64,000 nt of DNA. It comes from a virus. A model generated the notes under the pieces. The model saw nothing but the letters and a program-made list of their open reading frames with translations, did no database searches and was not told the origin of the DNA. The position numbers and the translations under genes are program-made. Of this stretch, positions 1-62,496 are shown piece after piece (within the stretch, counting starts at the first letter, position 1; each line of letters begins with the position of its first letter). The DNA lies in the IMG/VR virus record IMGVR_UViG_3300029922_000013, positions 86,859-150,858 of that record. One strand, 5' to 3'.

Positions 1-408
1 AGTTATACAAAAGAAGATTTGAATCTTTCAAAAAAAGAAAGAATCGTCAGAGCTTGTGTAAATCCTTTCTACAAAAACGCTAAGCTTAAGCCATGGATGG
101 CGCTTAACATGGATCTTTTGGAAAAAGCCATAGATTTACATTATCCTGTAATGGAGATTGAAGAAGCCATACTAACTCCTGAACAGGATGCTAAACTCGA
201 TAATATGAAACGAAGAGCTGAGGAAACTAAAGCTCTGAGAACTGCAGATAATTCTGAGTCCGAATATAATGACGGGACAATTGATTTAGCACAAAGTTTG
301 CCAAATATGGGCGATGAAATAGAGCTTACACAGGAGATGTTAGACGCTATGGATGGTCCGGACGTAGTCTACGATGAAGATTTCGAAAAGAAATTAGGAC
401 TCAAATAG
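1..408 (+). CDS. Hypothetical protein, 5'-truncated by the window edge, directly upstream of the helicase
   Basis: Frame is open from position 1 to TAG at 406-408 and abuts the helicase ATG; acidic C-terminus. Confidence 0.6.
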   Translation, partial: SYTKEDLNLSKKERIVRACVNPFYKNAKLKPWMALNMDLLEKAIDLHYPVMEIEEAILTPEQDAKLDNMKRRAEETKALRTADNSESEYNDGTIDLAQSLPNMGDEIELTQEMLDAMDGPDVVYDEDFEKKLGLK

Positions 409-57811: not shown

Positions 57812-58431
57812 TCTTTCTCCTTTGGACACAATACTTTCTCCAGAACCTTATAAGCCAAAGCGCCGTCCTGAGAATCGTTATCCACAATATCAAAGGCCTC
57901 TCTAGCCGCCTTATTTAAAAGGCTAAGTTGTTTAGCAAGTTCTCTATTCTCCTCATCTTTATTGGCAATTTCAACCCGATAAGCCCGCAGTTCCTTCCTG
58001 AGATAGGAGTGAGCCTCATTTTCATCTGCAAACTTTTGGCCAGCTAGCGTTTCTGGTACCCAGCGCCAGTTCTTGACTTCTTTTTGGGCTTTTTCGCACT
58101 TTTCTTTCCAAGCCAAGGCCAAACCAATTTGAACTTCGAGCTGATTCTTGAGATCTTCATTTTCTTGAGCAAACTTTACATTGGTTTGTTCCAATTCCCC
58201 TTGGCGACCTTTGTGAGTCAAGGCTTCGATCTCTTGATTGAGTCGGTCAACTTCTTGTTTATGATCATCAATAGTTGCTTCGTGTATGCTTACTCCCATA
58301 ACTCTAAACCTCCTATTGAGTTCCTGCATTTTAGCCATCGTGTTTAGTGCCTTGGCTTCTTTGCAACACATGCATCTTTCATCGAAGGATATTCCATGAT
58401 CACTGCACCAATGACTTACTTCTGTGCTCAT
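57808..58431 (-). CDS. Coiled-coil protein with N-terminal Cys/His cluster
   Basis: CSDH...CMCC followed by heptad-rich body. Confidence 0.55.
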   Translation of the reverse strand: MSTEVSHWCSDHGISFDERCMCCKEAKALNTMAKMQELNRRFRVMGVSIHEATIDDHKQEVDRLNQEIEALTHKGRQGELEQTNVKFAQENEDLKNQLEVQIGLALAWKEKCEKAQKEVKNWRWVPETLAGQKFADENEAHSYLRKELRAYRVEIANKDEENRELAKQLSLLNKAAREAFDIVDNDSQDGALAYKVLEKVLCPKEKE

Positions 58432-58704
58432 CTAAAACCCCTGAAATTCTTCGAGTTTTTCATATTCACATCGTTTGATCTCAACCCGAGTTACTGTGTA
58501 CTGCGTACCTACATCCATTTGTTGGATCATTTCGAATACACCTTCTGCATTGGTTTCCAGATAAGAGTCTTCGTCATTGGATATACGCCAAGCAGGAATT
58601 ACGGCGTAATAATAGTCTTCGTAACAATGCAAATGACAGCCACCCTGTTGGACCATTTGACCAGGCATCTCTTCCTTACAATGGTGACAGTGAAATTCAA
58701 GCAT
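58432..58704 (-). CDS. Hypothetical Cys/His protein
   Basis: CHHC...HLHC. Confidence 0.5.
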   Translation of the reverse strand: MLEFHCHHCKEEMPGQMVQQGGCHLHCYEDYYYAVIPAWRISNDEDSYLETNAEGVFEMIQQMDVGTQYTVTRVEIKRCEYEKLEEFQGF

Positions 58705-58909
58705 CTTCGCTCACTACCAATGTGAGAGGTTCGTACTTTTCTTTAAGTTTGTCATACTCACGCATCCAGGATATGCAAAGGGTTTCCAGCTCCTCATTAT
58801 TTTGGTTAAGTACTTTAATTTCCTTTAGCAAATCTCCAATCATATTGTACTCCATCGAGTCATTAAAGGATGTATTACGGTAGTAATGTTCAATTTGTTC
58901 AGTAGTCAT
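58697..58909 (-). CDS. Hypothetical protein, first gene of the leftward block
   Basis: Probable start MTTEQ. Confidence 0.45.
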   Translation of the reverse strand: MTTEQIEHYYRNTSFNDSMEYNMIGDLLKEIKVLNQNNEELETLCISWMREYDKLKEKYEPLTLVVSEDA

Positions 58910-58958
58910 ACCCCCATATTCCACTAAGTGAACCAAAAAGTCAAGCTTAAAATAAAGG

Positions 58959-58987
58959 TTGACAAATGCAACATATAAGGATATCCT
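58959..58987 (+). promoter_or_regulatory. Sigma70-like promoter at the strand-switch point
   Basis: TTGACA-17 nt-TATCCT. Confidence 0.75.
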
Positions 58988-58993
58988 GTACTA

Positions 58994-59181
58994 GAGATGA
59001 GCGGAATGTTAGATGTGAGAGCGGGACGGCGTTAAAGAGGTTAAAGCCCTCAGGTTCAAGAGTAATTACTTGACGGCCGTAAACAGCTCACTGGAAATAC
59101 TCACCGGCCATTGTCGGCGATAGGGAATAATTGGCGCCTACTGAATACCTATCAAAGCTAGCGTAGCGACTAGCCCATCTC
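58994..59181 (+). ncRNA. Candidate ~190-nt multibranched non-coding RNA
   Basis: Begins at the predicted TSS; terminal stem GAGAUG/CAUCUC encloses at least seven further stems; no annotated ORF. Confidence 0.6.
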
Positions 59182-59199
59182 GCTTTTAAAGGAAGAAAC

Positions 59200-59454
59200 A
59201 TGACCCTAATAGAAATTTTGGAAGAGCTTACAAATTACTGTGCCCTGAACACTTCTGAACGAATAGAATTAGATCTTCTCTTACCTGGAACAGTTTTGGA
59301 AGCCTGGAATCACAGTATGCGTCCTATAATGATCTATAATCCTGGAACTCCTTCTGATATGACTCCTACGATATCGGGCACTATCTACGGAACAGGCGGA
59401 ATCGTCAGACTCCACAGACAAGAATTCGTGGAAGTTAGAGATAAAAATAGTTGA
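59200..59454 (+). CDS. Hypothetical protein
   Basis: AAGGA RBS. Confidence 0.5.
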   Translation: MTLIEILEELTNYCALNTSERIELDLLLPGTVLEAWNHSMRPIMIYNPGTPSDMTPTISGTIYGTGGIVRLHRQEFVEVRDKNS

Positions 59455-59478
59455 CTTTTAAAAATAGTATGGTATCGT
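59451..59478 (+). promoter_or_regulatory. Sigma70-like promoter
   Basis: TTGACT-16 nt-(TGG)TATCGT. Confidence 0.6.
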
Positions 59479-59568
59479 AGTTTTGTGATCATGGAAGACC
59501 ACAACAAAGCAGCGGATGTCCTTGGCCCGCATCCTTGGGTGTCCGCTGTGTAAATTTTTGGAGGTAGT

Positions 59569-59934
59569 ATGTCTAATCTAGTCAAACATGCAGAACAAGA
59601 AATGCGAATCGCTGGCCTTTATGATGAAGGCGCTGATTATGATGGCATGATTCCAGATGCTGTCGTAGAAATTGTCAAGGTATTCGCAGCTCAAGGACAT
59701 TCCGGCATGTCTGCTTCTATTGTAACTTCCATTCTAGAAAGAGTCCTAAGATATAAGGTTCTTGAACCCATCAATTCAGATCCTCAATATTGGATGGAAG
59801 TTTCTGCTGAACAAATGGGCAGAGCGGGAGTTTGGCAATCCACTAGAGATCCTGGCTTCTTCTCAGAGGACGGTGGAACTACATTTTACAGTTTGGATGA
59901 CCCAGAAAAGAAGAATTGGCCAAAGAGGTTCTAA
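59569..59934 (+). CDS. Hypothetical phage protein (QGHSGMSA motif)
   Basis: GGAGG RBS; FAAQGHSGMSA. Confidence 0.65.
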   Translation: MSNLVKHAEQEMRIAGLYDEGADYDGMIPDAVVEIVKVFAAQGHSGMSASIVTSILERVLRYKVLEPINSDPQYWMEVSAEQMGRAGVWQSTRDPGFFSEDGGTTFYSLDDPEKKNWPKRF

Positions 59935-59935
59935 T

Positions 59936-60166
59936 ATGACAAAAAATGACTTTACTATGTTTTTAGGGAATATCTTCAAGAAATGGTCCGTAACTGAGAA
60001 TCAGAAGACTAATACTATTACAGTTAAAGTGGATGGACCTATGCTAGCCCACGACGTTATCTATTTAACAGGTTTTGCTCCAGCTAGCGTGCGCGTGGAG
60101 TTCTGTACCATGAACTGGTTCGAGCGACGTTTCACTGAAAACAGGAGCTGGAAGGTTAAGAAATGA
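59936..60166 (+). CDS. Hypothetical protein
   Basis: Probable start MTKNDF after GAGG. Confidence 0.5.
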   Translation: MTKNDFTMFLGNIFKKWSVTENQKTNTITVKVDGPMLAHDVIYLTGFAPASVRVEFCTMNWFERRFTENRSWKVKK

Positions 60167-60360
60167 CCAGCATCTTAGACCAACTACAGAAGCTTAATCT
60201 GATGCAAACTATAGCAGATATAGAGAATATGGACAAGCAACCTTCTTTGTGGTATGGTCACTTTAAGTCAATAAATGGCAGAGAGCCTACCCAAGAAGAA
60301 ATTGATTTGGAATTAGCTGGATTATACGATACCTTAAACTGGCTAGACACACATGAGTGA
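60163..60360 (+). CDS. Hypothetical protein
   Basis: ATGA-coupled. Confidence 0.5.
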   Translation: MTSILDQLQKLNLMQTIADIENMDKQPSLWYGHFKSINGREPTQEEIDLELAGLYDTLNWLDTHE

Positions 60361-60559
60361 AGAAGACCAAATCCTTCTAGAAGTTAGAGAGCTTATGGGT
60401 TGGACAAAGAGATATGCAGAGCTTTGGTATACTTTACCTAATTCGAATTTTGGAAATGTTAGTCCAAAACAGATGGTTGATGTGGGACGTGCGCACAAAG
60501 TATTTCAGTTCATATCAGCCGCAAGAGAAGAAAACTTTCCTCCGAAGGATTCAAAATGA
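60353..60559 (+). CDS. Stand-alone Xre/MbcA/ParS antitoxin C-terminal-like domain
   Basis: AELWYTLPNSNFGNVSPKQMV...G...V pattern (W..PN..FG..SP). Confidence 0.65.
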   Translation: MSEEDQILLEVRELMGWTKRYAELWYTLPNSNFGNVSPKQMVDVGRAHKVFQFISAAREENFPPKDSK

Positions 60560-62274: not shown

Positions 62275-62496
62275 ATGTCAGAACGTGCAAAGAAAGTATT
62301 CGAAAGTCGTGGGTTAGATGGTCAGGAAGAGCACATGGCTCGCATTAAAGCTGCTGCGGAAGTACTTTGGGACGAACTAGATAACATTTCTGTTTATCCT
62401 GGTAATTCTGAAGGGATGCGTTTGATTAGTTTGGCCAAGACTTCTTTGGAGCAGACTGTCATGTGGGGCGTTAAATCGCTATCGAGGAATCACTAA
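62275..62496 (+). CDS. Acb2/Tad1-like helical hairpin protein (candidate nucleotide-signal sponge)
   Basis: RLISLAKTSLEQTVMWGVKSL helix; 73 aa; AAGGAG RBS. Confidence 0.6.
   Translation: MSERAKKVFESRGLDGQEEHMARIKAAAEVLWDELDNISVYPGNSEGMRLISLAKTSLEQTVMWGVKSLSRNH

Follow-up and report, generated by a model that had tools for sequence, protein, structure and literature searches.

Genes and predicted promoters at the strand switch

The window, that is, the whole stretch of 64,000 nucleotides analysed here, forms the final 64 kb of an IMG/VR virus record of 150,858 bp, whose completeness CheckV puts at 91%, and DNA of this phage is present in the peat metagenomes of nine studies. The sequencing runs listed for this DNA include no RNA run, which says nothing about expression. 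A gap of 290 nt (58910-59199) separates a leftward block of small genes, which ends at 58909/58936, from a rightward block of small genes, which starts at 59200 and extends to the end of the record with 17 ORFs by a rough call (Table 1). The product of the 70-aa gene on the left has no family in Pfam or PHROG. The first gene on the right, an 84-aa ORF whose Shine-Dalgarno (SD) sequence AAAGGAAG sits 5 nt ahead of the ATG, likewise encodes a product with no Pfam or PHROG family and matches only unnamed viral clusters in the ESM Atlas. A search for relatives of these flanking proteins (84 aa and 79/70 aa) returned only their own sequences on record. The rightward block includes the genes for the Thoeris inhibitor Tad3 and for a protein with the Acb2_Tad1_hairpin domain. 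Therefore, early anti-defence operon is a fair label for it, and the first-pass annotation, which was made from the sequence alone and placed an early transcript here, read this context correctly.

Also adjoining the strand switch is a minus-strand gene (58432-58704) for a 90-aa Cys/His-rich protein. Its family is small and unnamed and consists of proteins of 56-120 aa; a further 33 representatives match with E-values up to 1e-3, mostly within that size range, and the protein also matches repeats in two giant proteins (3500 and 4357 aa). The relatives of this protein (35-43% identity) lie in surroundings that lack synteny to this locus.

Table 1. Features at and around the strand switch, in coordinates of the window
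Feature	Position	Strand	Details
70-aa orphan gene	58697..58909	-	Gene callers' product P0031, start at ATG 58909; mRNA probably leaderless
P_left (predicted promoter)	58916..58944	-	TTGACT 58944-58939 (as TTGACTTTT, 58944-58936), 17-nt spacer, GAATAT 58921-58916, 6 nt, ATG 58909
P_right (predicted promoter)	58959..58987	+	TTGACA 58959-58964, 17-nt spacer, TATCCT 58982-58987; predicted start ~58994-58995
Untranslated leader, 206 nt	58994..59199	+	Local hairpins, G+C 0.48, stops in all frames
Possible 12-codon mini-ORF	58997..59035	+	MSGMLDVRAGRR, stop TAA; ATG 9 nt after -10
Shine-Dalgarno AAAGGAAG and 84-aa orphan ORF	59187-59194; 59200-59454	+	Opens the early operon on the right
Tad3 promoter (sequence scan) and 90-nt leader	within 59451-59568	+	TTGACT-16-TGgTATCGT (extended -10)
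Tad3 gene	59569-59934	+	Thoeris inhibitor, PF25185, E 1.1e-31
Acb2/Tad1-like gene (Acb2_Tad1_hairpin domain)	62275-62496	+	PF24729, E 2.5e-11

The promoter TTGACA-17-TATCCT that the first-pass annotation had put ahead of the RNA is where it was said to be, and its predicted start, at about 58994, coincides with the beginning of GAGAUG. Judged by consensus match only, this site, P_right, is the best sigma-70-like site within 58000-60500 (10 of 12 positions). In the entire phage sequence, a scan for TTGACN-16..18-TAnnnT found 46 sites, P_right among them, and the putative promoter fits a family of this phage's own, TTGAC(T/A)-16..18-TAnnnT. The same reading of the strand switch was incomplete on the other strand, since it overlooked a putative leftward promoter, P_left. 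The two candidate promoters stand back to back and span 58916-58987, their -35 boxes lying 14 bp apart; TTGACTTTT, in which the -35 of P_left stands, is the reverse complement of the -35 of the Tad3 promoter. The 6 nt from the -10 of P_left to the ATG correspond to the geometry of the leaderless class of this phage described below, and we infer that its transcript would start at or beside the ATG of the 70-aa gene, a start that would make the mRNA of this gene leaderless.

At 12 of the 46 sites, an ATG lying 6-10 nt past the -10 opens an ORF of 70-726 aa. The same geometry is encountered at 1.4% of random positions (P ~1e-12). Therefore, the phage appears to make many leaderless mRNAs, and these look like a major mode of its expression. 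Examples inside the window are 2280 to ATG 2317 and 18749 to ATG 18785 and, on the minus strand, 46586 to ATG 46551 and 58944 to ATG 58909. Most of the other promoter-like sites that stand directly before genes are followed by SD-led leaders of about 16-32 nt. These leaderless starts provide a clear signature for setting gene starts in this phage and a hint about the translation habits of its host. A minus-strand promoter-like site at 59155-59127 (9 of 12 consensus positions) was rejected as being at chance level, with six such sites found and 5.0 +/- 1.8 expected.

Composition and fold of the leader

The RNA proposed by the first-pass annotation runs from 58994 to 59190; we count the leader to 59199, immediately before the ATG of the 84-aa ORF. 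At 206 nt, it is the longest leader among the convincing promoters of the phage. The scan for TTGACN-16..18-TAnnnT found no site inside it. All six frames contain stops, and the longest open pieces have no PHROG match, which leaves no sign of hidden coding. The G+C content of the proposed RNA is 0.48 over its 197 nt, with a maximum of 0.50 per 150 nt, compared with 0.41 for the genome and 0.356 +/- 0.067 for 39 other gaps; the leader is thus about 1.9 sd above these gaps, just one of which, a short one, is richer. Structured RNAs in A+T-rich genomes often stand out by high G+C. Internal repeats in the leader are short ones only.

The first-pass annotation also noted GCUUUU after CAUCUC. This is not a terminator, and the plus strand carries no terminator-like site here or elsewhere between P_right and the 84-aa ORF. 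The last hairpin of the leader has 5 bp (-6.5 kcal/mol), and the U-run begins 10 nt beyond it; therefore, a product of about 190 nt has no visible 3′ end. In the wider interval 58000-60500, no terminators that would need antitermination were found.

An AUG at the predicted transcript start was overlooked in the first-pass annotation. It opens the possible mini-ORF of Table 1, into which the 5′ strands of three of the proposed helices extend. The position of this ATG is within the 6-10 nt range of the leaderless starts of the phage, a weak indication because the chance of such a placement is about 0.09 by a rough estimate.

The individual helices of the proposed RNA are all present in the sequence. 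The closing helix pairs GAGAUG (58994-58999) with CAUCUC (59176-59181) and can be extended to 8 of 9 pairs. Inside it lie GUGAG/CUCAC (59015-19 with 59087-91), ACGGC/GCCGU (59026-30 with 59076-80), GAGG/CCUC (59037-40 with 59048-51), UCAAG/CUUGA (59056-60 with 59069-73), CCGGC/GUCGG (59104-08 with 59113-17), GAUAGG/CCUAUC (59119-24 with 59148-53) and GCUAG/CUAGC (59157-61 with 59170-74). The RNAfold centroid reproduces these stems, and the structure as originally drawn scores -47.2, compared with an MFE of -50.6. The longest helices in 58994-59199 have 5-6 bp. The palindromes GTAATTAC and GGCGCC, suggested as sites of kissing or dimerisation, also exist, but palindromic hexamers are not enriched over chance: the proposed RNA holds 7, against 3.7 expected, and 7.8% of genome windows equal this number.

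The single statistical test applied, a comparison of folding energy with that of shuffled sequences, is one that the claimed ncRNA fails, and the first-pass annotation itself had named such an outcome as refuting. Its MFE of -52.3 kcal/mol compares with -51.3 +/- 4.1 for the shuffles (z = -0.25), and 73 of 200 dinucleotide shuffles fold as well as the proposed RNA. The fragment 58994-59181 gives z = -0.32, the full leader z = 0.00 and the opposite strand z = -0.91. The values for sub-domains range from -0.2 to -1.3, the best being a local three-way junction (59014-59100), which is also recovered by RNAfold. A functional RNA may nevertheless have a z-score close to zero.

The multibranched shape depends on where the transcript is taken to end, a point that the first-pass annotation missed. 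In the 188-nt fragment 58994-59181, the closing helix has a pair probability of 0.99, which falls to 0.02-0.07 in transcripts ending at 59260, 59454 or 59600; for GUGAG/CUCAC, the corresponding values are 0.63 and 0.02-0.12. Only the five local hairpins persist in the longer transcripts, with probabilities of 0.46-0.82. Ribosomes on the ORF would release the leader from pairing with the coding sequence, and therefore the result for longer transcripts counts against the robustness of the shape and not against its possibility. According to these models, the local hairpins GAGG, UCAAG, CCGGC, GAUAGG and GCUAG probably form, and the closing helix and the multibranched shape are statistically indistinguishable from what any sequence of like composition gives. 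In the ensemble, the SD and AUG of the 84-aa ORF are about half unpaired. The predicted 5′ end is complementary, at 8 of 9 positions, to a stretch that ends 6 nt before the SD, for which the chance is 0.02-0.05 by a rough estimate.

Search for relatives

The first-pass annotation could match the RNA to no tRNA, tmRNA, RNase P, 6S or known riboswitch, and this has been borne out. ARAGORN finds no tRNA or tmRNA in the whole window, and cmscan with Rfam 15 gives no match at gathering thresholds over the same length. When the E-value limit was raised to 10 for 58800-59400, the best Rfam matches had E-values of at least 2 and scores of at most 15 bits. One of these low-scoring alignments, to the DUF2815 RNA (RF03084), covers 59122-59202 and takes in the SD and the ATG, with 15.0 bits against a gathering threshold of 41.2 (E = 8). 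Two other sites of the genome score 14.5 and 14.2 bits for the same family, and hits below its cut-off occur in 9 of 14 control genomes. Moreover, the product of the 84-aa ORF that follows falls into no Pfam family and is therefore not DUF2815, the gene that lies downstream of this RNA in its own family. The match is noise.

At the DNA level, the leader has no match among INPHARED phages in distant mode, and pattern scans for it in IMG/VR, JGI metagenomes and GTDB genomes returned 0. Four small contigs of the same gap have an identical sequence. The contigs of four peat runs contributed identical pieces and one diverged piece of 66 nt, which belongs to a 237-nt contig of peat run X7 and matches 59112-59177 with 9 differences (about 86% identity). 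This contig ends 3 nt beyond 59112. At 59177 it departs from the sequence of the window (CTCCACATTTAAGGAGATTTATGTTTGATA...), so it has no match to the 84-aa gene; past this point, it continues with unlike sequence that contains AAGGAG and an ATG. A second peat phage thus shares at least the 3′ part of the leader, which is therefore found in more than a single genome.

Relatives of Tad3 offered another route to the leader. The loci examined were contigs for seven relatives, one of them without DNA, and 80 further IMG/VR loci. Tad3 identities are 66-76%, the contigs are not syntenic and the upstream regions are unrelated; even at the closest loci (74-76% identity), the upstream regions are quite different from the leader. 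Neither blastn nor nhmmer finds the leader in the Tad3 loci. A covariance model built from the structure of the first-pass annotation itself has no match in 454 kb of sequence (90 loci, most of them around Tad3 relatives; best E = 1.8), in five whole viral records or in T4 57-68 kb. The helicase and a 785-aa protein of this phage have no matches in INPHARED or IMG/VR either. The phage is almost without relatives, and therefore the missing RNA homologues are weak evidence.

Nature of the leader

We consider the gap to be, probably, a divergent early control region, in which the 206 nt downstream of P_right are a 5′ untranslated leader and not a discrete RNA gene. Because the fold is at the level of scrambled sequence and detectable relatives are lacking, the stretch is most probably a normal mRNA leader of unusual length. 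According to this reading, two host-type (sigma-70-like) promoters standing back to back would control 58910-59199. P_left would fire leftward and give the leaderless mRNA of the 70-aa gene. P_right would fire rightward from about 58994, and its transcript would run through 206 nt of non-coding sequence to the SD-led 84-aa orphan ORF and continue into the small early genes, including Tad3 and the Acb2/Tad1-like gene. The role of the leader would be at most a general one, such as slowing decay that depends on the 5′ end or tuning the translation of the first gene. Both start sites, the read-through into the 84-aa ORF and any function of the leader are what we infer from the sequence.

A sigma-70 promoter followed by a 5′ untranslated region is recognisable here by the 16-18 nt spacing, the SD-led ORF downstream and the lack of an intervening promoter or terminator. 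Of the marks of an independent small RNA gene, a promoter of its own is present, by consensus, and a defined 3′ end before the next ORF is absent. Thus, "large leader", which the first-pass annotation had kept as its alternative, is the description that survives: the promoter fits the family of the phage, no other promoter-like site precedes the SD-led ORF at 59200 and all frames carry stops. Its first choice, an undescribed early phage ncRNA acting as a decoy, scaffold or ribozyme, does not hold up, with a fold no different from shuffles, no 3′ boundary and no family of relatives. The points that speak against a plain leader are its length, its high G+C content, the complementarity between its 5′ end and the stretch before the SD, and the piece of about 86% identity in a second phage.

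Alternatively, the leader could be a real structured RNA that has not been described before. It would be a riboswitch-like or protein-binding element that controls the early anti-defence operon in cis, or else a stable ncRNA released by processing, and its relatives would be absent from the searched collections because its peat phage lineage is barely sampled. We regard this as unlikely. Its G+C content is high relative to other gaps, the leader is unusually long, its 5′ end is complementary to the pre-SD stretch, RNAfold recovers a local three-way junction (59014-59100, z = -1.3), and the sequence is partly conserved at about 86% in the other peat phage, unlike the sequence beyond 59177; in addition, the phage as a whole is nearly without relatives, its helicase and 785-aa protein having no hits in INPHARED or IMG/VR, so that missing RNA homologues are weak evidence. 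However, the fold energy is the same as that of shuffles, the multibranch closure is lost in longer transcripts and no Rfam match appears even at E up to 10. Furthermore, neither sequence nor covariance-model searches match in the 454 kb of 90 loci or the five whole viral records, and the closest Tad3 loci (74-76%) differ in their upstream regions.

There is a similarly small chance that the 206 nt have no function and are either the remains of a first gene now lost or a recombination import at a mosaic junction, transcribed only by virtue of their position between P_right and the next ORF. The G+C content of 0.48 is nearer to that of coding DNA (genome 0.41) than to that of other gaps, the nearest Tad3-bearing phages differ in gene order and in the first genes at their switches, the similarity of the second peat phage stops at 59177 as it would at a mosaic junction, and the leader has no excess structure. 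However, no trace of a reading frame is left (stops in all frames, no PHROG match), the DNA matches no phage record, and phages with compact genomes seldom retain some 200 nt that serve no purpose.

A more specific proposal is that the G+C-rich leader acts in cis as a structured RNA of a new kind, possibly together with the 12-codon mini-ORF, and gates the early anti-defence operon of large peat phages whose lineage is barely sampled and otherwise uses leaderless mRNAs. We think this quite unlikely. If it were true, the regulator would head an operon in which Tad3 and an Acb2/Tad1-like sponge are known to act in counter-defence, and, to our knowledge, RNA-level control of counter-defence operons is poorly known. 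Least probable, and very unlikely in our judgement, is a leader-peptide mechanism in which the near-leaderless mini-ORF is translated and translation or stalling (three of its last five codons are Arg codons) remodels the hairpins and tunes the operon: the ATG lies 9 nt past the -10, inside the range of the starts of 12 long genes, the 5′ strands of three of the proposed helices fall within the mini-ORF and a possible mini-ORF stands at the start of the Tad3 leader too, but an ATG in that range is not rare by chance, as estimated above, no terminator/anti-terminator pair follows and the SD, about 0.5 unpaired, is not sequestered.

An ordinary mRNA leader, the reading that we prefer, has counterparts in well-known phages, and the promoter-leader arrangement itself is an ordinary one. 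In phage lambda, PRM and PR are divergent promoters, and the cI mRNA is leaderless, starting at the A of its start codon. The present locus would resemble this pair in having two back-to-back sigma-70 promoters, one giving a leaderless transcript and the other a transcript with a leader. It differs in that no operators or repressor gene have been identified here, in that this phage is large (a 150.9-kb record) and apparently lytic, and in that leaderless starts occur genome-wide (12 sites) and not as a single case. In phage T7, the early leader lies upstream of gene 0.3 (ocr) and carries the RNase III site R0.3. By analogy, both phages would have early promoters for the host polymerase, a hairpin leader of a few hundred nucleotides and an anti-defence cluster heading the early operon; however, 58994-59199 has no RNase III-type duplex of about 20 bp or longer, and there is no sequence similarity. 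Promoter-proximal antitermination RNAs are a third case: in HK022, put is made up of a pair of defined stem-loops that together measure about 70 nt, and lambda nut of boxA and boxB. The likeness would lie in a structured RNA directly 3′ of early promoters where a long operon begins, but no such motif is recognised in this leader. As it stands, the locus means little beyond an ordinary divergent early promoter region with a long rightward mRNA leader.

The 90-nt leader of Tad3 itself contains a 13-bp interrupted hairpin (59509-59551, z = -2.0), which is statistically better supported than the proposed ncRNA at 58994-59190. A possible mini-ORF of 20-22 codons, from GTG 59485 or ATG 59491 to TAA 59553, spans this hairpin and ends 15 nt before the Tad3 ATG. 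The arrangement is missing from the closest Tad3 loci examined, and the locus L006 has a short leader. L006 is the closest of them (Tad3 74%; RlaP 87% over 83 residues). At L006:3524-3830, about 300 nt of G+C-rich, gene-free DNA lie between leftward genes and an A+T-rich promoter zone; this segment has no Rfam match, and its fold gives z = -1.6 on the plus strand and -0.25 on the minus strand. On another Tad3-carrying phage contig (L009:2150-2460), about 290 nt of gene-free sequence rich in G+C separate a promoter-like site from the first gene of a rightward block that it precedes. This sequence is unrelated to the leader of the window and holds a perfect 15-bp hairpin inside a 10-bp stem (MFE -95.3, z = -1.6).
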